From Podarcis cretensis (Eukaryota), in the NCBI GenBank assembly GCA_951804945.1, contig OX638165.1, positions 27,528,001 to 27,592,000 of the forward strand: a stretch of 64,000 bases of DNA. Direction: 5' to 3'. Within the stretch, counting starts at the first letter, position 1; each line of letters opens with the position of its first letter. The position numbers were made by a program, and so were the translations under genes. Shown here piece by piece: positions 14,042 to 33,060 of the stretch. The notes below the pieces were generated by a model. It did not search any database. It saw nothing but the letters and a program-made list of their open reading frames with translations, and was not told the DNA's origin.

Positions 14042-14291
14042 AATCCGTTGCTCACCCCCAACTCCAGAGCAATAAATTGAATAACATTAATCTCTTCACA
14101 ATACAGATTGTTGGGGATTGCTCACTTCCCAGAGGCTGCTAACAGTCAGGGTTGACAAATCTGAGCTAGGTGGACCAAGGCTCTGTATAAGGCAGCTTCT
14201 TAAGTTCCTAAAAAATAAATGACTATACACATGGTCTCAAACATGGAGCTAAAGCTCCTTAAAAGATGCCTATGAACAACATGAGTCTCAC

Positions 14292-14441
14292 CTGTCCCTC
14301 CAGCAACATCAAGCAACTGGCTTCCAGGGTAAGGGTTCATTTGATGCAGCAGGTTGTCCTTCCAAAGACGATGGATTCCCAGACTCATTGAATCATTCAT
14401 TAAATCATACTTCTTAGCCACATTTTCAAAAACTTGGTAAA
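14292..14441 (-). CDS. COQ5: COQ5 exon 2
   Basis: [37 protein letters not shown] (UbiE/COQ5 signature, SAM motif I). Confidence 0.97.
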
Positions 14442-14599
14442 CTGAAAAAGATAAATGCATCACTGATCATGATCAAATAATGTGTTGATTACATTGCCAC
14501 ATATTGCAAGATACTTTTTTTTTCTTTCAGGGAAGGGCTGTAGCTCAATGGTAGAGTATCTGCTCTGGCAGATGCTGTTTTCTCTTCTAGAAAGATTCC

Positions 14600-15499: not shown

Positions 15500-15905
15500 C
15501 CTCCGCCTCCGCTCAGCCGAGGCCTGGCTACTCCCTTCGGCCTAGCTCACCCTTCTCGCTTTTCTCCGACTCAGACACAGTCTGGAACCCGAAATGCGTC
15601 TCTCCGTCGGTGGCCGGGCGCTGTCCCCCGCTGCACAGGCCCCGAAGGAGGCGAAGCACCCTCTGCCCGCGGCAGCAGCCGTCCCAAACCCTGCGGGAGC
15701 CGCCAACCATGGAGGCCGCCATCTTGCTAGGTGTCGCAATGGTTCTACGTCACCTTTCATTGTAGCTCCGCCCATTCTCAAAGGGAGGCGGAGAGGGCGT
15801 GAACCACGCGCACGGACTCGTTCCTCCTTAGACACCGACGTCATGGGCATCGCCAACATCGGAGGGAATTGTTGGGGCGTTTTCAAGACTGGTCTAACCA
15901 CCGCT
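15500..15905 (-). promoter_or_regulatory. COQ5 CpG-island promoter
   Basis: CpG-dense; YY1/TISU at 15715-15726, CRE-like tacgtcac (~15747) and cgacgtca (~15836), GC boxes (~15766, ~15783). Confidence 0.75.
15551..15722 (-). CDS. COQ5: COQ5 exon 1 (mitochondrial presequence plus ETHFGF motif)
   Basis: MAASMVGGSRRVW...GETHFGFQTVSESEKSEK; donor gtgagc at 15550; in a CpG island. Confidence 0.95.
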
Positions 15906-16665: not shown

Positions 16666-17314
16666 GCTATACTATCGCGGCTTTGGCACCAAGAGACATT
16701 AAAGGACCCCTGACAGTTAAGTCCAGTCGGTACTACAAATCCCATGACGCGATGCGGCAAGGTCCAGCTGCAAACCAGAAGCGTTGCTTTTATTTTTGTC
16801 CTCGGTCCTCTCAATAAAAGGCGAGGCCCGACGCAGGGACGAAGAGAGCATGCCGGGAGCTGTAGTTTCCCCGCGTTCCGATTCTGTTCCGTCAGTAGAG
16901 GGAGAAACGACAAAGCCCAGCGTGCCTTGCGACGGGCCGAGGCTGGCCCCTCCCACCTCTCCCAAACAGCCTCATCCGGGCCCTTGGCCGTCACTGTGGT
17001 CGGCGATTCGTCGCCATTACAGGGCAGCGGCGGCAACGGTCGTGCGGAGAGAGAGAGAGGCTGAGGCGGCCCGGGGGGCTTCCCTTGGGCGGCGACACTG
17101 CGGCCTTCCCGACGCCCTCGAGCCAAGGCCGGGCCGGGCCTCGCGGGGCTCCGTCCCTCCTCGCCGCCTCCTCTCTCTCGGCCGCCGCCGCCGCCGCTCC
17201 GTCCGCGGGGCCCCGCAGGCCCGGCCGGCTCCCCCGCCTCCCCCTCCGCCTCTGACTCGGCTCTTGAGGCCTACCTGTCTCCGTTTCCCTCTTCAGGGCG
17301 AAGCCGTGAGGAAA

Positions 17315-17326
17315 ATGTCGCCATGA
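17315..17326 (+). other. RNF10 uORF1 (Met-Ser-Pro-stop)
   Basis: gaaaATG TCG CCA TGA; A at -3. Confidence 0.55.
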
Positions 17327-17601
17327 AGGTGGCCGAGACGACTGCGCTGCGCCGACCCCGCCGCCGGGCCATGAGCCTGGGCCTCGGCCCCAGCCCCAGC
17401 CGCCGCCGCCGCCTCCTCCTCCTTCGCAGTCTCCGCAAGAGCGCCTCCGCGGCGCCCGTGAATGCTCCAGAGCGCGCCCGTCGCAGCAACAGCAGCTCCA
17501 GCCCACGACGTGATGGACAAGAGCAACCCCTGCGGCTCCGGCCTCGGCGCCGGCTCCTCTTCCTCGGCGTCGGCAGGCAAAGGGCAGCAGCCCCGCTCTA
17601 A
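17323..17601 (+). other. RNF10 overlapping out-of-frame uORF2 (92 aa, Arg-rich; second in-frame ATG at 17371)
   Basis: gccATGa at 17323 and 17371; frame differs from the main ATG 17462 and runs 140 nt into the CDS. Confidence 0.5.
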
Positions 17602-17642
17602 CTCGGCCGGCCCGGCCGGGGGAGAGTCCAAGCCCAAAGGCG
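17462..17642 (+). CDS. RNF10: E3 ubiquitin ligase RNF10, exon 1
   Basis: MLQSAPVAATAAPAHDVMDKSN..KGQQPRSNSAGPAGGESKPKG; donor gtaagg at 17643. Confidence 0.93.
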
Positions 17643-17681
17643 GTAAGGGAGTTAGTTGGGCAGGCTTCCAGTTTGTGTGTG

Positions 17682-17860
17682 TGGTGGTGCGGTGGTTAGC
17701 CTGCCGGGCTAGGACCTGGGAGACCCGGGTTCGAATCCCCACTCGCCCTGGGACCAGGCACAACCTGAACAAGCTAGCCGGGTTGTTGCAGGTATTGAAG
17801 GAAGAGAGCCCATGTGTGTTATCTTTAGCTTCTTAGAGGAAAAGGTGGGCTATAATGCAA
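17682..17860 (+). mobile_element. MIR/Ther1-like tRNA-derived SINE in RNF10 intron 1
   Basis: tggtgcggtggttag A box, ggttcgaatcc B box, then gggttgttg.. CORE-like body. Confidence 0.55.
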
Positions 17861-20800
17861 GCCATCGTTAAAATACAGGGTAGCACACAAGTCTTGCTCT
17901 TCAGTACCCTATAGGAACTTTCTGCCACAAGAAGGTGGAGGTGCTGGGGGAAAGTTCTCTTCTTTCAGTGTTCCTGGTGTGTGACCAAATCCCACAGGTG
18001 CCTCATGTCCTGAAAGTGGCTTTTTGGGCAGGTATGAATTATTTTAAGTTCCACAACATCTTGCAGATTTCCCCGGTCTTGGTGTATATAGGACTGCAGC
18101 CATAAACATAAGTTCAGGACAGATAAAATGCCAGGTATTCAGGACAGACAGAAGAAAGTACTTGTTCGTGCAGCCCTTTTTTAACTGTGGAACTCACTTC
18201 CATAGGGGGGTAGGGATGGCCACAAACTTGGATGGCTTTAGAAGAAGCATAGATAAATTCACAGAGGAGAAAGCTATTAGTGGTTACTAGCCATAGTGGC
18301 TGTGCTCAACCTCCACTTTTAAGAGGCATTATTTCTCTGAATACCAGTTACTGGGAATTGCAGAGGGGAGAGTGCTCTTGTGTTCCACTCTTCTTGGGGG
18401 TTTCTCTTTGGAGCATCTGGATGGCTATTAGCGAACATGATGTTGGACAACATGGGTCAGTGGCCTGATCCGACAGGGTTTTTCTTATGTTCTCAATCTT
18501 AGGTTCAGATTATGTGGTCAAGATGCTAATCTAAAGCTGAATGCATCCAATGATTCTTTTAATTCATCTGCAGCTGCTCTTTGGCTCCTGCCTGTGTCTC
18601 TCATCGTATTCTGCATTTTCCATTAGTTCCCTCTCTGCAGGAATATGGTCTTTGAAGTCCAAAGTGTATTTGTTATGAAGTCTGGGTTCTTGTTTACACT
18701 GTATTTATAACCAAAATTGGAAGCAGTGCTGTGTTTGGATTGATGATACACTGAATTAATGGTTGGTTGCTGCTGCTAAAGAATGTAGTGTGGAGATAGA
18801 AGGTTTGGGTGGAGCAAGTGCTACTTCTGACTTTCACAGACCATGTGTCCTGGCACTGATTATATTCTAATCTGCATAGCTAGTTGTGCAAGTGGCTGAT
18901 TCTGAGTACGTAATCCTCAAATACTGCTAAGGTCAGTGTAACATGCAGTTGCACTATTATTGTGACCTTTTACTTGGCTGGCAGTTAGCAAATGTCTTTC
19001 ATAAAAAACACCCTTCTTCCATACGTGATTCAAGCTGCAAAAGTCACCTGTATGGCTTGTAAAGGAATCTAATTACTCCCTCCCCACTTGTAGTTAGCTG
19101 TTTAGCTATTTGAGTCTTAAGTTTGTAATTAGCAAACTATGATTATCCATTATTATTGTAGGCTTAAAGGCAACTTTTGACATTTGTTGGGCTCCAAGTG
19201 CTATTAACATAAATCAGCATAGCCAAATCTCTGGGAGCTCCAGAGGTTCCCCATCCCTCATATATCTAGACCCCTGAGTCTCACTTGTCAGTGGTATGGA
19301 AATAATTAAGATATCACAACAGCTGGATGTTGGTAAAGGTCTTGATTATTAGTCTGGGATATGTTTATTGGGCGTATCTCCATTGCCTAGTTGAAATAAT
19401 AAGAAAAAAGAAGGACGAGTTGCAGTAAGCTTTAGGTTTTTACGCTGCCCACTCCTCTCTGCACAGCCAGGAGAAAGTATGGAAGGTTTTTTTTCTGTTT
19501 CCTATTGAATACAGGTTGCTGTGCTGTCTGGACTCAGAACTGTAGTTAATCTTCACTATAGTTGGTTTAAACAAGCTGCAGTTTGAAGTTGGCTTGTTGA
19601 ACCTAAACCATAGTTAACATAAGTGCAGTTTATTGTTGCAGAAAGTATGGCTGCTGTGGTTAACCCATTGCAAAAGCTTTCAACCTTTTTCTCCTAGCTG
19701 CACAGAAAGGAGTGTATAAGCCCAGTGTACTGCTGAGGTTCCTTCAGTTTGTTTACATCACAGGAAACTAACCATTTAGCATGATGTGCATATACAGCCA
19801 ATTAATAGAGAGGTCTGACCTAAAATCTCATTCATAATGGCCAGCACTCCATCAAATAACAAGCAGTATAACAAAATACAATGGCATGGTAAAATTTCTG
19901 CATGCTGAAAAATATCTATGGAGAATACAGTAATACTGAAGTTCAATATGTGCATACTGTGGTAGCCAGCATGGTACTCTCCAGATGTTGTGAGCTAAAA
20001 TTCCCATCTTCCTTGACCATTAGCCATGCTGTCTGGAGCTGATGCATGCTGTAGTCCATAACATCTGGACAGCATCACAGTAGCTACCCCTGACGTAAGC
20101 TGTATTTGCTGAGGTTGTGTGACTAGCTGAAAATATATGACTGACTAAAGTGCTCTTGGCACAGGTAGGAGCGTGAGGATATCAGACTTTTTTGCCCTAT
20201 CTTTATAGTGTGTATCAGCCATGTGGGCTCCTGGATCAAGTGATCACTATCCTCTTTCCTAGCTGTAATTTCTTCTTTCGGATTATTCTGCATGAGTCAC
20301 TACAGAACTAGTGGCAGTAGAGGCAAAGGTTTATCTTCCTGGAACAAGTTTTTAACATGATACTGCAATATATGCAAGAGATATGATTTTGTTCAACAAA
20401 TGTCCACTATATGTTCAACTGGCTGCTCTTGAAGGGGAGAAAGCTTCAGCATACAAATAAACAATTCACATTTAAAAAGACAAACGTTGCTCCTATGGAA
20501 CTGTTTACAAACAGATCTATTTACTATAGACAGGCTCAATCACATGGTCTAATGCCAACTATATGTTCACTAGCAGTTTTCTCTTGGCACAATTTAAAAC
20601 AATGAATAATACAAACCACTGAGACTGCAGTCTTTTACCAAGTTAATTGGTAGTAAACCCCACTGAATTCAATGGGACTTGCTTTTCAGTGGACGTGTAT
20701 AGAATAGCACTGTTAAAACAGCAGACAAATATTCAAGTAGCTTTTTCTGGGGATGAGTAGTAACAAAGCCCATAAAACAATGTGGATGCATCCTTGCAAT

Positions 20801-21046
20801 AACTAAACATGTATTTTGTTGCTTCTGTGAATTTTCGGGTTGCATGTGGTGTTCTGCTCTTGATAAAGCTTCTCCTGGGTTATCCTGCTGACTTTTTGTC
20901 GCTTTAACATGGTATATGCTGCATGTTGCAGTAGGGGTTACTTGAAGGTGATTAGCTTAGTTGTAGTCAAGATTCCATTTTCCAGCCCTGAGACTCTGAA
21001 CTTGGATTGCTTTTTTAAAAAGCCACTGCTTTATCTCTTTTTCTAG

Positions 21047-21252
21047 ATGGAAAAAACGCAAGTGGATCCAAACAGCGTTATAATCGTAAACGAGAAACTT
21101 CGTATCCCAAAAATGATAACTTCGCCAGCCAATCCCGTCGCTCCTCTTCACAGAAAAGCAAAGCTTTTAATAAGATGCCCCCTCAGAGGGGTGGCCATGG
21201 CAGTGGCAGCAAACCTTTTAGCTCTTCTTCTAATGGTGGAAGACGAGATGAG
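21047..21252 (+). CDS. RNF10: RNF10 exon 2
   Basis: [38 protein letters not shown]; phase 1 to 0. Confidence 0.96.
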
Positions 21253-22317
21253 GTGAGAATCTTTCTCGCTGGACCAGCCATATTTCTTGGGATGGGATGA
21301 TTGCATGGTGATGCTACATATCTTGTGTAGAATGTGCTTGTGTTCTTTTGCTGTGTTCTGAAAAATGGGAAAGGATCATGTATAGTGATTTTTACCTCAT
21401 CTTCAAATCTAAATTGGTGCCAACAGCTGTGGAGGAAGCTAGAATAGCAACTAGAAAGTGTTGTGCCATAAGTTCTTTCCTTTACCTGTTAGGAAGCTTA
21501 TCTTCAATTGCTGCCCCTTATCCAGGGGTGGCTAACATCTGGCCCTTTAGATGTTGTCCTTCAGTTGGCATAGCCAGTGATCAGGGGTGATGGGAATTGT
21601 AGTCCAGCAGCATTTGCAAGGTCACGGGATGTCTACCCTTGTTCTTATCCCTAGTGCTATAGCTCAGGTAGAAATTCCATTTTTAAAAACATCAAAACCC
21701 TTCTTTTATGCAGACACAATGGGACATGACATGCCTAAAGTACCACAAATAGTGTTTTGTTTTGATGACTCTGTAGTGTGTTAAGTTTTGCTTGTACAAC
21801 TAGCAGAAATATATGTAAGGAATGGATGAAACTGTTGAAAGATCTACATTTGTGTCTCCATATCTGACCCGGCCTCTTCTGCTGCTGGAATTTATCTGAC
21901 AGACCAAGTAATCTGTTTATTTGAAATATCAATTGGTATTTCATGCTGTAAAGTGTGCTCAATATAGGCCTTACAAGTAAGTTAGCAATTGTGTGGGAAG
22001 TAATCTCAGATGTTTGGTTTGTAGTTTATCGAATTTGATGTAAAATTAATTTTTCCGTGTGTTGATACTTGTGGAATAAGAGTTGTTTGAAACTGCCTGA
22101 CTGCCTGAATTGAATTGCTGTCTGAATTGAGCCTCCAAACCACTGAAGGTGTTACTCCTATTTGTGTACTAAATCTTACAGTGCAGCAGTCTTTTATAGT
22201 AAATGCTCTTTGGACATGTGTTGCCTACACTACACACCAGTGCAAAATATGTTTATGTGGCACAGCTTTTAAAAATTGTTTTATTGGTGCATTCTAAGTG
22301 ACTCATTGTCTTTTCAG

Positions 22318-22514
22318 GTAGCAGAGGCCCAGCGGGCAGAGTTCAGCCCTGCCCAGTTCTCTGGACCCAAGAAAATTAGCCTGAACCACTTGCTGAACTT
22401 CACCTTTGAACCTCGTGGCCAAGCAAGCTACGTTGGGAATGGCCGCGGCAGTTGGGGCAAGAGGAACAGATGGGAGAACAAACCTTTCAGCAAGGAGCTT
22501 TTCCTACAGGCCAA
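22318..22514 (+). CDS. RNF10: RNF10 exon 3
   Basis: [43 protein letters not shown]; GT-AG. Confidence 0.97.
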
Positions 22515-23158
22515 GTGAGTGGGAGGTCAACACAAGGTTGTGGTTGCCTTTCATATGCCCAAGGGAGAACGAGGCCAGCAAAAATCAAGGCAAAGAAAAA
22601 TGGAAAATGTATTCATTTTCTTACATTGCTATGATTTTGGTGAAACTTCTGTGATTATATTGTTTTGCTGTTTTCCCAGTTTAATGAGACTTTATGTAGC
22701 AGTCTCTACTTGGAAGGTTTTGTGGGCAGAAAGACCAAGGAATGATTCATTGTGCACTTTTAAATTTTATGCTCTGGTTTCTATAGACACTTTAGAAGCC
22801 TTTTGTAATAGTAATTCCGAGAGTAAGTTGAGAAGTAAGCCTTGAAAGGTAACAATTTAAGGAAATGAAGGCATTTTCAATATTTCTTCTTTGATACCAT
22901 GTTATTCTTTATTAAATCTGTAAGTGTTGGATTGGCTTCCTGCATTAAGTTGATCCACCTACCGGTAATACTGTAATATGGCAGAGGTGACTAACCTGTT
23001 TTCTTTCAGATGTTGCCAGGCTATAATTGCTACCATTTCTGACCATTGGCCATGATTCCTGGGGCTGATGGGAGATGGGAGTCAAACATCTGTAGGGCCA
23101 TAAGCTACCCACCCCTGTACTAATGCGATTCTGCTATTATTTTTTATGTTGTCCTATC

Positions 23159-23695
23159 TAGTGATGTGATGTGAGAATATTCTCTGCTAGAAAATTCTCC
23201 AGAGAATATTCTCCACAAACTGTAAATTCTAATGTAAGAACCAGTTTTACAGCACGCATTAAATTTTTTTAGTAAATAATAAGTCAAGCTGTGATATTGT
23301 CAGTGTAAGTAATGAATAATTGTTTTTTTAATCCATTATACATACACAACATAATTAGAATTCAAAGTTGATGGTAAATATACGGTTAGTGGCAGGCTTA
23401 GTGATTAACGTGAGTCATTCAGGTTTAATTTTCAATTTCAGGTTTGATGCAAAAAATCAAAGAATGTGAATTCGCTGCATTGCCCCATTGAATAAAAGTA
23501 TCTGTACAGTTTTTGGTTGCCATCTGAACAAGTTTACCCATGAATAAACATGTATATTAACTAATTATATCATTTTCAATGCATTAAAATGAATATTCTC
23601 CTATTTTAAATGAAAATTCTCTAATATTTTCATTAATCAAGAATATTCTTGAGAATATTCTCCAAAAGATTATTCTTGAGAATTTAACATCACTA
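23159..23695. mobile_element. hAT (Ac-like) non-autonomous element with GAGAATATTCTC subterminal repeats
   Basis: TIR TAGTGATGT..ACATCACTA; degenerate 8-bp flanks gtcctatc/gtcttaca; AT-rich interior. Confidence 0.65.
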
Positions 23696-23804
23696 GTCTT
23701 ACATAATTGTGATCCTGAATACCTGTATTTCTGGATTCTTTTCAGATAGCTTAGCATCAGATAAGTATTCAATATTTTCTGGTTTTTCTGTGTTTGCTTT
23801 CCAG

Positions 23805-23895
23805 CTGCCAGTTTGTGGTGTGTGATGACCAGGACTACACAGTTCATTTCACTGACCCAGACACCTTAGTCAACTGGGACTTTGTGGAACAAGTG
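23805..23895 (+). CDS. RNF10: RNF10 exon 4
   Basis: [30 protein letters not shown]. Confidence 0.97.
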
Positions 23896-24053
23896 GTTAG
23901 TAGCAATGCACTTGCCTTGAAAGCTTTATTACACAAACTTAGACAGGTTGGCCACTTACCATTTGAGTTTGGGCTCAGTTCTCCAATCTGTTAAGGTCAT
24001 ATTTTAGAGTGAAACAATAGCACAGTAAATTGTATTCTGTTGCACTTTCCCAG

Positions 24054-24238
24054 CGGATTTGCAGCCATGAAGTCCCCTCTTGCCCGATATGCTTATACCC
24101 GCCTACTGCTGCCAAGATCACTCGCTGTGGGCACATCTTCTGCTGGGCATGCATCCTGCATTATCTCTCTCTGAGTGAGAAGACTTGGAGTAAGTGCCCC
24201 ATCTGTTATGGCTCGATTCACAAGAAAGACCTGAAAAG
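24054..24238 (+). CDS. RNF10: RNF10 exon 5 (C3HC4 RING finger)
   Basis: [42 protein letters not shown]. Confidence 0.98.
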
Positions 24239-24323
24239 GTAAAAGAGGTTCTCTGAGCAGTGCCTTATTTTTTATTGGCTCACAAGTCACCTATCGCTCA
24301 TCACTTCCCTTTTGTTTTTGCAG

Positions 24324-24460
24324 CGTTGTTGCTTTGGAAACCCGTCAGTATGCGATTGGCGACACAATTACGATGCAACTGATGCGACGGGGGAAAGGTG
24401 TCTTGATAGCGCAGCCCAAGTCAAAGCTGGTGAATGTGGAACAGCCTATTCATCTAGGAG
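24324..24460 (+). CDS. RNF10: RNF10 exon 6
   Basis: VVALETRQYAIGDTITMQLMRRGKGVLIAQPKSK..PIHLG. Confidence 0.96.
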
Positions 24461-25627
24461 GTGAGCGGCAAAGAGGGAAGTTCGGTAGACTTTGCTGCCA
24501 TTTGTGCAGTATCCGGGGCATAATCTAGTTCAAAGTTTTCTGGCTTGAGCTGCCTTGAAATGAATAGGAGCAGCACAAAAATCAGTCTTGGCCATGGCTC
24601 CTTGAAGGTGGCAGAACTGTTACTCTGCTGTTGCTCCCTGTATGTAAACTGCCTAGATTCTCTGCTTCAAAAAGCATGTAGCAATTCCCAACAGTAAGTA
24701 TGACCAATGGCTGGGATGATGGGAATTGTAGTTCTGCAAAATCTAGAGGGCCACAGGTGTTCCCTACACCCAACTAGTGCTTTCTTAAGTACAAGGTGGG
24801 ACTAAGCACAATTCTGTGATCGACAAATGATTAAAGTGATCCATTTGACCCCTTCCATTATTTACTGTTACGCCCAGTATTTCACCTCTGTGTTTTAAGT
24901 CTCTGCTTTGCTTCCTCTTCTGTTTTCTCCACCAGGGCTTCGTGATAGCCCAGTGAGGACAATTGATCGGTCACACCTTTTCCACAGTCACATGTCCAAA
25001 ACTTTGCTTGTCCTTAACAAATCAAGCAAGATAACTTCAGCACTAGTAACTTAACTGCTTGGCACATTCCAATGTTGTGGGGTCCAGTGTATCTCATTAG
25101 TTTCCATGTTAGACTACATTTTTAGAGTACAGTATCAGTCATGTCTATTTCTTAAGTGGAGCTATATTTTTTCCAGCTAAGACTTCAAAGGGGTCTGTTG
25201 GACCCTAGTAGCAGGTAGAGAATGAACAAAAGGTTTCAGGTGGTAAAGCAAGGAGTGCTGACTTTTTAGCACCCATGGGCGTCCTTGCAACCCAGAGAGA
25301 CTGTCACGGGCACCACACATCCCAGGCAGCCAGGCACTCACTGCAGCCTAGTATATAGGCTGCAAGTGAAGGCTTCTTTCAAGCCTAATTTAATGGAGGG
25401 GAGCAACCCCTGTGGTTGCTAGGGAAGGCCTCTGCAGGCATATGTAGGTCCAAATTATATAGAGCCCCTAAACAGCTGGGAAAGCATTGCTGCACCTCTG
25501 GCATCGATTCAGACTGTGGCTATAAAGAGAGCAAGCAGATCACAAGAGTGTTAACTTGTAGGATGTCTTCCAACTGGATGGCTACGTTCATCCCAGTGTA
25601 CCATTAACTTGACATGTCTTTGTCCAG

Positions 25628-25788
25628 ATGAGCAACATGGACAGTACTCCAAGCTGCTCCTGGCCTCCAAGGCTCAGGTGCTGCAGGAGGTTATCCTGGA
25701 GGAGAAGGTGGCACTCTTGCGCCAGTACGAGGAGGACAAGCACACACCTGAAGCATGTTTCATTGAGGCTGCCATTCAGGAGCTGAAG
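25628..25788 (+). CDS. RNF10: RNF10 exon 7
   Basis: [34 protein letters not shown]. Confidence 0.96.
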
Positions 25789-26493
25789 GTGAGGCATCAC
25801 CGGGTTCTGAGTAATGTGATATAGGGAAATCTGTGGGTTTTACTAGTTGCTCATGGCACCTGTTCAGTGTGAGTGACTTTGAGCATTTTTATTGTGTATT
25901 TCCCTATTTTGGCAGGTGGCCAAAGGGTGGTTTTTTTTGGGGGGGGAAGGGGTGTTGACAAGCACAAATACTGCTGAAGTTGTAGCTTGAGCAAATAGGA
26001 ATCTTTATTTATTTTGTAAAAATGTATACACCACTTGATTGTAAAAACCCTCAAAGCGGTTTACAAAAAGGTAACGCCATAAAATCAGGGGAAATTTGCA
26101 GTACATTAAAACATGCAAGAAATTAAAATACTAAAAGAGATTAAAAACCACATCAGCATTTCTAAGTATCTGGGTAGGCTTGTCTTTCTTTCTTTCTTTC
26201 TTTTTTTCGGAATAATGGTTTTTTAGGGTTTTTCCCCGTTTACATGATGCTTCCAGTTTTCTCTTTCATCTTCACAATAACCTTGCGAGATGGGTTTGAC
26301 CTTAAGTCACACAGAACCCAGATAGTTTGTTGTCACTGTCACCAGTGCCTGTTTCTTGTTCTCTGGTAGGGCGTAAGTGATGGTTATGCATCGAGAGGCA
26401 CAGTCTGAAACATCTGGAGAGCATCAGGCTGGCAAAGCCTGGTGTATATGTTGATGTGATGCTGAGATTAACAATGTATGGCTTGGCTTTTAG

Positions 26494-26631
26494 GATCGAG
26501 AGGGAAACTTGATGTCCGACAAAAACAGAGAGAGTGATGTTGCAGGAACCACGGCAGCTGTGGAGGCTCTCATTGTGACAGAGTCATCTGACAAAGAAGC
26601 AGCAGCAATAGTAGCGACCCAGGAGAGGAAG
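26494..26631 (+). CDS. RNF10: RNF10 exon 8
   Basis: DREGNLMSDKN..ATQERK; 138 nt, phase 0 to 0, GT-AG; less conserved. Confidence 0.88.
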
Positions 26632-26654
26632 GTGAGAGCTTGAGTTCTGTTGAG

Positions 26655-26901
26655 AGTCAGTGTGGTGTAGTGGTTAAGAGTGATAGACTCGTAATCTGGG
26701 GAACCGGGTTCACATCTCCACTCCTCCACATGCAGCTGCTGGGTGACCTTGGGCTAGTCACACTTCTTTGAAGTCTCTCAGCCCCACTCATCTCACAGAG
26801 TGTTTGTTGTGGGGAAAGAAGGGAAAGGAGAATGTTAGGCGCTTTGAGACTCCTTCGGATAGTGATAAAGCAGGATATCAAACCCAAACTCCTCTTCTTC
26901 T
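26655..26901 (+). mobile_element. MIR/Ther1-derived (Squam3-like) SINE
   Basis: tggtgtagtggttaagag A box, gggttcacatctcc B-box remnant, ctgggtgaccttgggctagtcac CORE, L2-like 3' hairpin, cttcttct tail. Confidence 0.75.
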
Positions 26902-27124
26902 GTTGAAATATTGTTATCTCACTCTATTCAATAACTATTTTAAGGTCATTAGAATGGGGTGAACCTAGCTTCAGTCCTTGTGCCCCAGAGACCATTAAGT
27001 TAGACACTCCAGGGTGACTTCAGGAAAGAGATGGCAGAGATAACTGGAGGGGTTTGAGGGGTTTTGAGGGCTTGCTTGAATGGGTTGAGAAAGATGGATG
27101 TGAACTACTCTCTATTCTTAACAG

Positions 27125-27380
27125 CCTATTCTGGAGTATCTCTCTGCTTTTGAAGAAGAAATCCTGGAGCCACCTCCTGTAGATTCTGCGGCTGCTGTCC
27201 TACCCCCCTTTGAGGTGGAGGAGGCAGCGGGAGTGGATGATGCCGAGGAATCTGGCAGGGACCTACCAGGCACAAGTGAGATGGAAGGAGCCAGTCTGCC
27301 TGAACCTGCCTGCAAGAAACCTGAAACAGCATTCAGCAGTGGGCACCCAAGCACCACCCCTTTCTACTACTTCTATCAAG
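27125..27380 (+). CDS. RNF10: RNF10 exon 9
   Basis: PILEYLSAFEEE..PSTTPFYYFYQ; phase 0 to 1. Confidence 0.95.
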
Positions 27381-27402
27381 GTTAGCTCAACAATGTCAAG
27401 GC

Positions 27403-28099
27403 AAGGGTAGGGAAGCCTTTTGCAGTTCAAGGTCTGCATTTCCTTGTGGGGAACCTTCTGGGGGGGTGCAGCATGTCAGTGGTGGATAGGGCCAAAGGCA
27501 AAAAGTACATAGAGTGATGGATATGGCTACATGTTTGTGCAGTGGACACGCAGTGTCTCTCTACCTTTCATCCAGATGAGCAAGAGATACAGTGGTGCCT
27601 CGCAAGACGAAAAGAATCCGTTCCGCGAGTCTCTTCGTCTTGCGGTTTTTTCATCTTGCGAAGCAAGCCGATTCGCGGATTAGCGCTATTAGCGGCTTAG
27701 GGGCTTAGCGGATCAGCTGATAAGCGGCTTAGCGGATCAGCTGTTTAGCGGCTTAGCGGATCAGCTGATAAGCAGCTTAGCGGCTTAGAAAAAGGGGGGA
27801 GGGAAGAAAACCCACAGGAACTCGCAAGACATTTTCGTCTTGCGAAGCAAGCCCATAGGAAATTTGTTTTGCAAAGCACCTCCAAAACGGAAAACCCTTT
27901 CGTCTAGTGGGTTTTCCGTCTTGCGAGGCATTCGTCTTGCGGGGCACCACTGTACTATCATAATTCAATGTCCATTCCAGCTAGGCAAATCTGCTCACAG
28001 AGGGTACAGAGGCCTGGCTTAGGGGAGGGTCCTGAGGGGCCAAACAGAGAAGCTTGGGGGGCTGCATTTGGACCCCGGGCCTGAGGTACCCCACCCCTG
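27403..28099. mobile_element. Old hAT-like non-autonomous element split by a Tigger-like MITE
   Basis: Starts aagggtagggaagc, ends gggcctgaggtaccccacccctg; related pieces at ~54680-55445 and ~59400-59600. Confidence 0.5.
27590..27952. mobile_element. Tc1/mariner (Tigger/pogo-like) MITE
   Basis: TIRs CAGTGGTGCCTCGCAAGACG / CGTCTTGCGGGGCACCACTG, TA on both sides; internal ~24-bp tandem repeat. Confidence 0.88.
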
Positions 28100-28876
28100 A
28101 TGTAAGGCTTCAGAAGATCACTGTGTGACATCTTCACCAACAATAACTTTCTTCAAGGGAAGCCAGCCTTTTGGGGGCGGGGAAAAGGCCTGGTGACCTT
28201 TAATTACTTCATGGCCTTAAGAGCTTTGGTTGAGGCAGAGACACGTAGCAGAACAAAAAGTGAGGGATTCCCAATGCCCTGTGGAGCGATGCCCTCTCTG
28301 TTTTGTGCTGCACACAAAGGGGGCTCTTAGGTTATTGGTTCCCAAGGATGGATTGAGAGCTACTTCCCTGAAGAATACAGGAGATTCTTTGGTACTCTAC
28401 TCTCAGAAATAAGGAGAATCTGCTATGTTGTTCTAGTTTTGGAGGCAGTGGTGGTGATGCTGAGAAAGCAAAACATCAATAAGGACTCTCAGAAGTGCAA
28501 ATAAAGGCTTAACAACACACAGCATTTCCGGGGATGCCATAATTGAGCAAAACACTATTGAATAGCAGTCCCTGCTAGAGTCTCAAAGGTGCTGTGCAAT
28601 TGATGTTTTGGAACTGGAGTGAGGTGGCTATTCAAGGCAGAATCAAATACCCTACTGGATTATTCCCATTATTATTATTATTATTATTTATTATTAATTT
28701 ATATGCTGCTTAAGTGGCATTTGGCAATTAAAAACCTATGTGCAGCAGCCCCAGGTGCATGCACTGTGTAGACTTGGGGCTGCTGTGTCTCGTAAGTGGT
28801 TCAAGAGAGTAGGGCGCGTTGTCCTGTTTCCCCTGCTTTCCATAACTGTCCTGCAACTTCTCTTCCAATGCTGTAG

Positions 28877-29010
28877 CTGAGGACGGGCAGTGCCTGTACC
28901 TTCACCCAGTGAATGTCCGCTGTCTTGTGCACGAGTATGGCAGCCTGGAGAAGAGCCCAGAGAAGATCACAGCCACTGTGGTGGAGATATCTGGCCACTC
29001 CATGACGGAG
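28877..29010 (+). CDS. RNF10: RNF10 exon 10
   Basis: [45 protein letters not shown]. Confidence 0.97.
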
Positions 29011-29519
29011 GTAACGACACCCAGGATTGCCCTGAGTGTGCATTTTGACTGTGGCTGAGCTGCTGTCTGAGGTATAGGTACCTTCATAGATTTTGCCTTT
29101 GCAAGAATTTATTATCTCCTGGAATGATTTTCTGGCTGTGTGCCGGGAGGTGGGTTTAGGTGCACTTGAGTGTTTCTCACACTTGGAAATACTCATAACT
29201 GGCACTGGCTTGGCTTTATTTGGTAAAAATAAGGCATTTTTTATTGTCATTGACCAGCATTCGCTTTACACAACATGACTTCAGGGAATGGGTATGGGGT
29301 AGGGTTACCATATTTCAAAAAGTGAAAATCCAGACACAAAAGTTTAGCTTTTTCTTTCAAAATCTCCCCCCAAAACCTTCATTTTTTGAGCTCTTTCTAA
29401 GTAAATTCTCCAAAAAATCAACATTTCCGTTATGGGTTGCCATACACCCAGGCAGAGAGGTGTGTTTGAAGGTTGCACAACCAGCTCTCTTCTTTCTAAA
29501 CCCCCAACCCCACCTGCAG

Positions 29520-29637
29520 GACGTGCGGCAGCGTCATCGTTACCTGTGTCATTTGCCACTCACCTGTGAGTTCAGTATCTGTGAACTAGCTTTGAAGCCT
29601 CCTATCATTTCGAAGGAAACACTGCAGATGTTCTCAG
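29520..29637 (+). CDS. RNF10: RNF10 exon 11
   Basis: [39 protein letters not shown]. Confidence 0.97.
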
Positions 29638-30088
29638 GTGAGCATTGGGAAGTTCTGTTTTTCTGTTGCAATTCCCAGTTGTAGCTGAAGAGTTGCTTTC
29701 CACGTAAAATGGGAGTAGCCGGTATGGTGTCCTCCCAATGTTGTTGGACTCCCAAATCCCATCAATCCCATGCCAGCTTGGCCAGTTGTCAGGAATGATG
29801 GGAGTTGCAGTCCAACAGTATCTAGAGGGCACCATGTTAGCCACCCTGATTTAAGGTTCACTGCTGAGAAGAGAAGGGGGCAGGTAATGGATGTGGGTGT
29901 GCTTGGGTTTGGACACAAATATTGGAAAACCGGGAAGTCTAATCCTGCAACAGAAAATGGAAACTGAAACCCCATCATTGTTGGGCTTCTAAAGGAGGTG
30001 CCACTGGGGACTACTACCAAAGGGGGGGCTTTTTCTTTGCTGTTCTGAGCAGTCTGTCTCACCCGGGAACTCTCCCAATGGCTCTTAG

Positions 30089-30190
30089 ATGATATTGAGA
30101 AAAGGAAGCGCCTGAGACAGAAGAAAGCTCGTGATGAGCGGCGTCGGGAGCGCAGGATTGAGATAGAGGAGAACAAGAAGCAAGGCAGAT
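30089..30190 (+). CDS. RNF10: RNF10 exon 12
   Basis: [34 protein letters not shown]. Confidence 0.97.
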
Positions 30191-30550
30191 GTAAGTGGCA
30201 ACCTTGCCCTCCTCATCTATAAAGAAGTGCTTGGTCTGACGCTTGGTGTAGATGGAAGCACCTTAGTAAGTGGGAGGAGAGGGGGGCGGTTGTGACTCAC
30301 GCTGGCCTTTTGTGACCGGGGTGGTATAATTTGAAACAGGCCAGTGAGTATGTAGAAATGACAGGTGGTGGGAATGCCATATTTTAAGCAGTGAAGCTAA
30401 GGAATTTCTCAATGGCAATATGGCTTTAACACCCCTCTGAAAAGGAAGAAGATGCATGAGGGAGTAGATGTCACTTGAATTGATCTGAATCATTGGCATA
30501 GGAGTGAATAACTTTTGTCTCGGAGATAAAACTTTTGGTTTTCTATCTAG

Positions 30551-30688
30551 ATCCAGAGGTTCATATTGCTTTAGAGAACTTGCAGCAGTTCCCTGCCTTC
30601 AGCGCATGCTCCGGAGAGTATGCAGGCACTGAGAACCAGAGTGATGCTCTGCTCTCTCCTGTTGGTTCAAGTCCCATTTCTCAATCAG
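30551..30688 (+). CDS. RNF10: RNF10 exon 13
   Basis: YPEVHIALENLQQFPAF..SSPISQS. Confidence 0.95.
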
Positions 30689-30996
30689 GTGAGCAGCTGA
30701 AAGAGACCTGGGTACCCACTCTCTAAAGGTTTACTTCCACTTCCTTAGCAGAATCATCCATGGGTGGGGTAATGCAGACAAAAGACAGGGGAACTCCTGA
30801 ACAGCAGCTACTGGAAGGAATGTGAGTCCCCAGCTGAATTTAAAATAGCATCAAACATGAAACTAATGAGGCTTGGAAGACCAGTGCCTGAGAAAGAAGG
30901 ATGCACAGGTGCATGAGAGCCTATACCTGCTATCATGCCTCCTTAATAACACAACTCTTAGTTTGTATAGTAAATGTGTGATTTTTCTTCTTGCAG

Positions 30997-31097
30997 AGTC
31001 CATGTATACTCCACTGTCTCCCGCAGGCAGTCTTGGCAGCCCTTCACTCTTTGTTGGAAATCTGGAGGAGGAATCTGCCCTCCCCTCTTTTGCCCAG
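30997..31097 (+). CDS. RNF10: RNF10 exon 14
   Basis: ESMYTPLSPAGSLGSPSLFVGNLEEESALPSFAQ. Confidence 0.95.
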
Positions 31098-31539
31098 GTG
31101 TGTGCTTTGTGCAGGACTTTCCGCTGCACTCAATCAGTTCTTCATTATGAGAATTGTTTAAGGAATCTGCTTGTGATTCAAGCATAAACGAAGCCTGAAC
31201 CCAGAACTACAAAATTGTCCACACTGCTTTATCACGTCTGAGTAAACCACAAAAAGGTGTTTGCTACTATTAACTGTCATGGGCTGGTTGGATGCAGAGT
31301 TGTGGGCGGCACCAGCTGTGACCACTAGGACAGAGCTGTTCTTGTTTCTTTGAATAATGAGTTAACTTCACTGACATCAGGTGCTTTATTGCTGACCTAT
31401 TCCTTACTCCAGCTCCTGACATTAACCTTTAAAGTAGCTTTAGCTGTCCTTTTGAAATGCCCTCCATTGATCTCAAGCCACCTTTAGTCACAGATTGGTA
31501 GCGTGTGGCTGATCTGACTCTTGTACTTGTTTTTGGTAG

Positions 31540-31600
31540 ATGCTGAGGGCTGGAAAAGCTAAACCAGAAACATGGAATAGTTTTCAGCCAAAGAAGAAAG
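31540..31600 (+). CDS. RNF10: RNF10 exon 15
   Basis: MLRAGKAKPETWNSFQPKKK; GT-AG, phase 0 to 1. Confidence 0.93.
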
Positions 31601-32027
31601 GTAAGCCAAGTGATTCTTCTTAGCTTAGTGTCTCCAAGAGGCAGCACCTTTGTAGAGTTGAGTCTATCTTAATTTATAGCCAACTTCTCTATATATGGCA
31701 CCCAAGATCGTCAACACCAATCTTAAAAAATTACGATGAAATGGTTAAAGATGTTTATCAGTTACATTTTGAAATAAAAAATAAAGTCGCTAGCCACGAA
31801 ACACCAAATAGTGACTGCATTAGAGCAAGTTAAAAGGAGCCATAAAGAAAGTCAGCCAAGCCAAAGGCCTGTCTAAATTTATAAAAGCCTTTGTCTTACA
31901 ATGGAAGGATATCACCTCTGATATCCTGATATCTATGTGTGTTTCTTTTCAATGGTGCCTCAGAGCACTTATGACAGAGGCCTGTTCAGACTCCCCAATG
32001 ATTTAAAAACAGCCACTTTTATTTCAG

Positions 32028-32189
32028 AGGAAAACTCCACCCTGGCTCCTCCCGCTCCAGGAGACAGTGATGGGGAGAGTGATAACTCGGACCGTGTACC
32101 TGTGCCTAGTTTCCAGAACTCCTTCAGCCAAGCTATCGAGGCAGCCTTCCTAAAACTGGACAAGCCGTCCACTTCTGACCATCTTTTGG
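32028..32189 (+). CDS. RNF10: RNF10 exon 16
   Basis: [45 protein letters not shown]. Confidence 0.96.
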
Positions 32190-32986
32190 GTAAGAAAAGA
32201 GATGGGAAATAGCCCAGTAGTGTGGGTGGGGGCGCTCAGTTGTGCAGCCCCTTAACACTGATGTAGGGGGAGACTTGCACAACTGCTTGTCTATGGTACA
32301 TTTGCAATGTCCCTCTTGGGTGATGCCTGTCATGGCCATCTCCAATTCAGGTGCTTCTGATAGTAGTACGTAATATTGGAGTACAGTGCAGGGCAAACCT
32401 AGCTAGATATGTTGAACAATGTTTATACAGTCTCACAGTCATCTTTGTTCTGATGCTGTGGGAATTTACTGGCCCAGCTTGATTCTTTGAGGTGTGGAGG
32501 GTTGGTCATGGGACCTACTGCCACTAACTTATGTCCCCACCCTTGCTCTGGCCAGTGACCAGCCAGGCATCCGCGTTTCGAAGGCTTGAATGGGAAGCTG
32601 AAAGTTTTTGATCCAAAGGCTAGGGGACTTGAGAATGAAAGAGCTTGCCAGCGGACGCCTTTCCACAGGAAGCCTGCCCTGGTTCTATATTTCCAGGGAT
32701 GAGTTTTTATTTAGCCCAGGGACAGTGAACCTGTGGGCCTGCAGAGGTTGCTGGACTATATATTTCCCATCATCTTGGGCCATGCAGGCTGCTGTGGCTG
32801 ATGGGAACTGGAGTCCAGCAACATGTCAAAGGCCTAAATGGGCTCCTGTAGCTGCAGGATGATCCCTTAATGCAGGGTGTGTGTATATTTAAAAGGAAAT
32901 TGCTTCTTTGGAGTAAGTCATTAGTTTAGCATCTCTGATAGGGAACATGTTGCGTCTGGTGACTCAGGCTGTTGTTTCTTTTACAG

Positions 32987-33060
32987 AGGAAAAAAGAGGC
33001 AAGAAAAAGAAGCAGAAGCAAAAGTTGCTGTTCAGCACTTCAGTGGTTCATACCAAGTGA
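32987..33060 (+). CDS. RNF10: RNF10 exon 17 (last)
   Basis: EEKRGKKKKQKQKLLFSTSVVHTK-TGA; summed CDS 2442 nt = 813 aa. Confidence 0.96.

Follow-up and report, generated by a model that had tools for sequence, protein, structure and literature searches.

The RNF10 leader of a lizard carries the upstream AUGs known from human, followed by a weak first and a strong second coding AUG

The 5′ leader of the RNF10 mRNA is already known as a site of translational control in human cells. Ford et al. (2025) report that three AUGs in this leader are conserved from human to frog, that at least four uORFs are translated, and that removal of all five uORF starts (three AUG and two near-cognate) raises a reporter more than 9-fold, with a pattern among the single-start mutants that they term 'complex' (PMC12008924). 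In the same work, loss of 60S biogenesis relieved the repression: knockdown of GTPBP4 raised the output of the wild-type leader reporter, and this rise needed eIF4A1. Lehmann et al. (2024) found RNF10 to be 1.6- to 2-fold up in RPL knockdowns while its mRNA was unchanged, and stabilisation of the protein was judged an unlikely cause (PMC11604940). A long RNF10 uORF is translated in both mouse (261 nt) and human, and the interest there was in its product as a tumour antigen and not in a regulatory role (Zeng et al., 2023; PMC10654591).

Two other leaders serve for comparison. That of ATF4 likewise has a 3-codon uORF (which in RNF10 begins at the first AUG of the leader) and then an out-of-frame uORF that runs over the main start, the spacer between them being about 88 nt with the known length of the ATF4 uORF. 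The spacer in RNF10, from the uORF1 stop to the ATG at 17371, is 44 nt, about half of this, and RNF10 has an extra inhibitory AUG on the stop of its short uORF that ATF4 lacks. Unlike ATF4, human RNF10 is not induced by eIF2α phosphorylation and shows no DENR dependence in the published data sets considered below. In yeast, a shortage of 60S subunits in rpl16b and rpl33a mutants raises translation of the main ORF of GCN4 by bypass of its inhibitory uORF AUGs. This also holds for an elongated, overlapping uORF that is unable to support reinitiation, past which output was up 2- to 4-fold in 60S mutants; the main AUG is bypassed as well, which blunts the gain (PMC9700599). In GCN4 this is a side effect of a mutation on an ISR-type leader, whereas in RNF10 it would be a normal input that feeds back on 40S decay.

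The DNA analysed here, referred to as the window, is a stretch of 64,000 nt from Podarcis cretensis (contig OX638165.1, forward strand), and positions are counted from its first letter. RNF10 is the gene in the window: 17462-17641 is 98% identical to lacertid (Zootoca, Podarcis) RNF10, and 17 coding exons were mapped over 17462-33057. The features of the leader and of exon 1 are collected in Table 1. The RNA sample consisted of two bulk raw-read runs (314 and 277 reads) from the same or a closely related species; 66 and 39 reads have loose ends at 17642, marking the splice to 21047. Nearly all reads come from one strand, and in both runs their 5′ limit falls in the bin 16980-17009, with all three upstream ATGs covered. 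Because the reads start at about 16990-17010, a limit set by read coverage and not by cap mapping, with no sharp start listed, all three upstream AUGs lie in the mRNA. A first-pass annotation of this DNA had made its proposal depend on a start site upstream of 17371, which is where the reads begin. The depth dips at 17367-17433, a GCC repeat where the mapping tool skips repeats, and fixed read differences at 17500, 17505 and 17527 affect no AUG or stop. Assembled contigs of two further runs were uninformative (none in X13, one short unrelated piece in X14), and no second copy was found in the animal's own genome, where the other match is a 52-nt piece within the GCC-rich part. We also considered an ATG at 16850 that opens a 158-codon frame ending at the uORF1 stop, and rejected it as part of the mRNA because there are no reads 5′ of 16980. 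As a separate observation, a 5-nt insertion at 17255 distinguishes the two runs: 24 of 33 reads have it in X24, and none in X23. This leader polymorphism lies upstream of uORF1 and touches no AUG or stop.

Table 1. Positions of the RNF10 leader, its upstream reading frames and the coding starts in the window
Feature	Position	Strand	Remarks
RNF10 5′ leader	16994..17461	+	~468 nt, 75% GC, 5′ end approximate
uORF1, 3 codons (MSP), RNF10 frame	17315..17326	+	ortholog of human start 3
Overlapping out-of-frame uORF from first AUG, 92 aa	17323..17601	+	ortholog of human start 4
Same overlapping uORF from second AUG, 76 aa	17371..17601	+	ortholog of human start 5
First RNF10 coding AUG	17462..17464	+	weak context U-3, C+4; directly after in-frame TGA
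Second in-frame RNF10 AUG (Met18-Asp-Lys)	17513..17515	+	strong context G-3, G+4; inside overlapping uORF
RNF10 exon 1 coding part	17462..17642	+	GT donor 17643, next exon from 21047

The leader contains exactly three ATGs, at 17315, 17323 and 17371. The one at 17315 (aggaaaATGt, with A at -3) opens uORF1, which closes at the stop codon 17324-17326. The ATG at 17323 (gccATGa) overlaps that stop and is in frame with the ATG at 17371 (gccATGa), so that both share the stop at 17601, 140 nt into the RNF10 coding sequence. For these uORFs all coordinates, frames and overlaps of the first-pass annotation hold, including the lengths of 92 and 76 aa. It had not mentioned that uORF1 reads in the main RNF10 frame. 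Further stops in this frame lie at 17372-17374, inside the third upstream AUG, and at 17459-17461, directly before the main AUG, and an N-terminal extension from upstream starts is therefore blocked. In 5000 dinucleotide shuffles of the leader, a short uORF followed by a downstream overlapping uORF arose in 1.5%, and in 0.34% when both uORFs were also required to have a purine at -3, while at least three ATGs alone were found in 11% of the shuffled leaders; the conservation between human and lizard is stronger evidence than these statistics. Nothing pointed to a conserved RNA structure, as the leader showed no excess folding (z +0.64 against 20 shuffles) and no Rfam match.

We took the human contexts from the mutagenic primers of Ford et al. 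and compared them by eye with the lizard sequence (PMC12008924). The gene is the same, and its three AUGs stand in the same order and frames. Identity is complete over 18 nt in the region of the uORF1 AUG (17312-17329) and over 14 nt in that of start 5 (17368-17381), and of the 15 nt that precede the main AUG 11 agree, with U at -3 in both. Near the 5′ end, 11 of the 12 nt at 17002-17013 agree with the start of the leader in the human reporter. No lizard ortholog of the near-cognate starts 1 and 2 was recognised by eye against the human primer contexts; the lizard leader does contain near-cognate codons that have a purine at -3. The uORF described by Zeng et al. is the same ORF, starting at the second AUG, and its human epitope corresponds, by eye, to lizard uORF residues in the coding overlap; the ORF measures 261 nt in mouse and 279 nt in lizard, and the peptides have low identity (PMC10654591). 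This bears out the mention in the first-pass annotation of a translated mammalian RNF10 uORF, and the conservation of the upstream AUGs on which that annotation made its case depend is likewise found, from human to frog according to Ford et al. and over the 18 and 14 nt identical in the lizard. The cassette has thus been described before, together with its conservation, repressive role and feedback logic, and a lizard ortholog adds little to 'human to frog'.

Other amniotes could be compared indirectly, through three gene models in which the uORF frame had by chance been translated. In that of a pit viper (P0042), 21 of the first 23 uORF residues match the lizard, and 16 codons separate starts 4 and 5 as in the lizard. 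A hyena model (P0096) has the same uORF start and the residues that encode the uORF1 AUG context, with 17 codons between starts 4 and 5 as compared with 16, a difference of one extra codon after the second AUG. In lizard, viper and hyena these two AUGs are in frame. The model of a horned lizard (P0021) corresponds to the uORF read from the third AUG; the main AUG follows after 30 codons and the end agrees with that in Podarcis, but between these two AUGs it has little identity to the Podarcis peptide despite the equal length. In these three models the frame and the spacing have changed less than the peptide, which favours a role in cis. The lizard uORF stop makes use of a stretch encoding Arg-Ser-Asn-Ser in RNF10, where mammals write Arg-Ser-Ala-Ser, and the mammalian uORF would therefore stop elsewhere.

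The main ATG had been called weak in context in the first-pass annotation, which U at -3 and C at +4 confirm; the strong, in-frame ATG at 17513 is missing from it. We fetched 122 RNF10 proteins (the best 120 of 1044 matches plus earlier ones; amniote where named), of which 106 passed a motif filter for exon 1 and 16 were dropped. Met-Asp-Lys/Arg is present in 100 of the 106 exon 1 models among these best matches. In 73 models a Met precedes Met-Asp-Lys, and all but one of these (72) have Leu or Pro as the second residue, so that position +4 of the first AUG is not G; the codon just before the second Met begins with G in 85 of 90 cases. The second Met is itself the start in ten models, including all five snake models with exon 1 (P0011, P0012, P0013, P0014 and P0019), which suggests that snakes have lost the first coding AUG and that this AUG may be dispensable. 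From the protein models we infer that a weak first and a strong second AUG are general among amniotes, and that the second would be used as a start. The overlapping uORF covers both coding AUGs. In the published reporter luciferase was joined at the first RNF10 AUG (PMC12008924), and this construct therefore has neither the second AUG nor the natural overlap. One model, that of Phrynocephalus forsythii (P0026), starts at the third upstream AUG and reads in frame into Met-Asp-Lys without the first coding Met; this is either an error of gene model or assembly, or a lineage in which the uORF has turned into an N-terminal extension.

We suggest, with a probability of roughly 60%, that the three upstream AUGs of the lizard cassette capture most scanning ribosomes and keep RNF10 low, and that a shortage of 60S subunits lets scanning complexes bypass them, RNF10 then rising as its substrate, surplus initiating 40S subunits, accumulates. 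All three AUGs are in the mRNA and conserved. A ribosome initiating at 17323 or 17371 would run out of frame over both coding AUGs and end downstream of them, and would thus make no RNF10; this layout is seen in the lizard sequence, and the repression itself, which the first-pass annotation had also expected, has been shown in human reporters (more than 9-fold for the five starts together; PMC12008924) and is presumed for the lizard. Basal RNF10 would come from leaky scanning past three AUGs of medium context and from some reinitiation after uORF1. The human mRNA has a low basal ratio of footprints to mRNA, with only 2 of 36 reference genes lower (data of PMC4341466). That a 60S shortage raises the output from the leader has been shown in human cells, and the functional results behind the mechanism as a whole are human or mouse. 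As the yeast GCN4 work and in vitro experiments suggest, a complex kept waiting for a 60S subunit would eventually leave for the next AUG, and the two coding AUGs, a weak one followed by a strong one, could form a catch site for such bypassing complexes, a role proposed from the sequence. In vitro, eIF5B and 60S subunits stabilise complexes on 5′ AUGs, although the main cause given there for sliding was a delay in GTP hydrolysis, and 60S joining added further stability (PMC4770231). Against bypass, knockdown of eIF5B modestly lowers harringtonine-stimulated 40S ubiquitylation, in a passage that does not give the RNF10 level (PMC12008924). The first-pass annotation had also proposed a feedback of RNF10 on its own substrate, with which the response of the human leader to the state of the ribosomal subunits agrees (PMC12008924).

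The same annotation had suggested that RNF10 could be tuned by the level of ternary complex or by the scanning state of 40S subunits. In an ATF4-type scheme, uORF1 would be translated, scanning would resume, and at low ternary complex the AUG at 17371 would be skipped and RNF10 started. The layout invites this reading, as a 3-codon first uORF is followed by an out-of-frame uORF with a 140-nt overlap, and the strong coding AUG lies 186 nt beyond the uORF1 stop, as compared with about 185 nt in ATF4 (computed from PMC7494916). RNF10 activity has moreover been linked to the ISR (PMC12008924), and RNF10 and ATF4 share a dependence on eIF3, their translation falling together with that of MDM2 in eIF3d, eIF3e and eIF3h knock-downs (PMC11534336). 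This last result counts against bypass and points to reinitiation, and some reinitiation may thus contribute to the basal synthesis of RNF10. Stress data from human cells, however, do not show the expected induction. Under tunicamycin the log2 change in translation efficiency was +0.16 for RNF10 (reference SD 0.26) and +2.73 for ATF4, and in the comparison of tunicamycin with tunicamycin plus ISRIB it was -0.01 and +2.94 (Sidrauski et al., 2015; PMC4341466), as normalised on 36 of 59 genes from the first part of a table of 10,943 rows, after 23 low-count rows had been omitted by eye. Arsenite gave RNF10 a fold change in translation efficiency of 0.12 (Z -1.39), against 1.3 (Z 8.16) for ATF4 (Andreev et al., 2015; PMC4383229). 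In the DENR knockout RNF10 was not a hit (log2 translation efficiency +0.19, rank 10769), while ATF4 fell by -1.86 and held ranks 4-5 (Bohlen et al., 2020; PMC7494916). The stress data come from acute stresses in human cell lines, in two of two published data sets without RNF10 induction. Where the uORF overlaps the coding region its footprints are counted with the latter, and this could mask a small effect on RNF10, yet ATF4 has the same bias in its counts and stands out. The spacing may also be unfavourable, with the AUG at 17323 on the uORF1 stop and that at 17371 just behind. In the absence of induction by eIF2α phosphorylation in human cells we do not class the RNF10 leader as ATF4-type: there was no rise with tunicamycin, no change reversible by ISRIB, no resistance to arsenite and no dependence on DENR, and control by the ternary complex, as proposed earlier, is improbable.

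The leader could also be a fixed damper, in which case turnover of the protein and pauses within the coding sequence would mostly determine the RNF10 level, with a minor part for uORF regulation. Loss of 40S biogenesis leads to proteasomal destruction of RNF10, and the 60S effect on RNF10 is just about 2-fold (PMC11604940); upon loss of LTN1, RNF10 goes up and pauses on its mRNA go down (PMC13075771). On the other hand, the leader alone is enough to give a reporter the GTPBP4 response (PMC12008924), and control cells have no more RNF10 when the proteasome is inhibited (PMC11604940); we regard this explanation as unlikely. Relief of a roadblock has less in its favour: slow 80S ribosomes on a GC-rich, Arg/Pro-rich uORF might block 43S complexes, and fewer 60S subunits would then mean fewer roadblocks. 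The overlapping uORF is indeed Arg-rich and spans both coding starts, and human footprints are denser on the RNF10 uORFs than on the coding sequence (PMC12008924). No stall site was seen, however, and the uORF peptide between start 5 and the main AUG, poorly kept between the two lizards and diverging further in mammals, makes such a block very unlikely. A function of the peptide itself appears the most doubtful of all. Mouse and human RNF10 uORF peptides are detectable (PMC10654591), a construct for such a peptide is listed in 10.1101/2021.03.02.433656, and lizard and viper have 21 of the first 23 residues in common. Against this, the likeness between lizard and mammalian peptides is mostly in residues that flank the AUGs, with a part forced by the RNF10 frame; no Pfam match reached the cut-off (a hit at E 0.15 fell below it), and each of two protein searches gave just one relative, although absence from databases is weak evidence because uORFs are rarely annotated.

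Bypass under 60S shortage thus remains the reading that we favor. A stronger form of it, which we put forward tentatively and regard as possible but not probable, is that the RNF10 leader is a gauge of 60S joining and not of eIF2, and that a ladder kept across amniotes, made up of the three AUGs of medium context and the weak and strong coding AUGs, would turn delayed joining into both more RNF10 and a shift to the short form that starts at Met-Asp-Lys. In the literature searched, outside which most subscription papers lie, we found no test of bypass on RNF10, no statement of a negative ISR result for it and no report of its pair of weak and strong coding AUGs. The available text of Ford et al. 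does not use the words 'leaky' and 'reinitiation' (PMC12008924), and the RNF10 leader goes unmentioned in the relevant passages of 10.1101/2024.07.30.605914, 10.1101/2021.04.20.440649, PMC12143884 and PMC13275300. Since the ligase whose level the cassette sets directs surplus 40S subunits into decay, the cassette is relevant to ribosomopathies in which 60S subunits are defective, as discussed by Ford et al. (PMC12008924). The lizard comparison narrows the question of how 60S is sensed, since the order, frames and contexts of the AUGs are kept, the peptide drifts and the ISR signature is absent; we point out that the published reporter does not include the second, strong coding AUG (PMC12008924).

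The surroundings of the leader gave some further observations. An exon of a UbiE/COQ5 methyltransferase lies at 14203-14466 on the minus strand (Pfam PF01209, E 9e-18), and a second CpG island at about 15500-15900, upstream of RNF10. COQ5 is likely arranged head to head with RNF10, with a predicted start near 15711; we assume that human has the same COQ5-RNF10 order. In intron 1, right after the exon 1 donor, a tRNA-like stretch at about 17685-17790 contains A- and B-box-like words; it had no Rfam match and looks like the head of a tRNA-derived SINE. Just inside the transcript, the segment 17002-17019 shows conservation to the 5′ end of the human leader; it includes CGCCATT, which we take to resemble a YY1 site. 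Just upstream of the RNF10 start there are two ACTACA-type motifs, at 16732-16745 (+) and 16858-16872 (-), which presumably resemble the ZNF143/SBS sites typical of bidirectional promoters.
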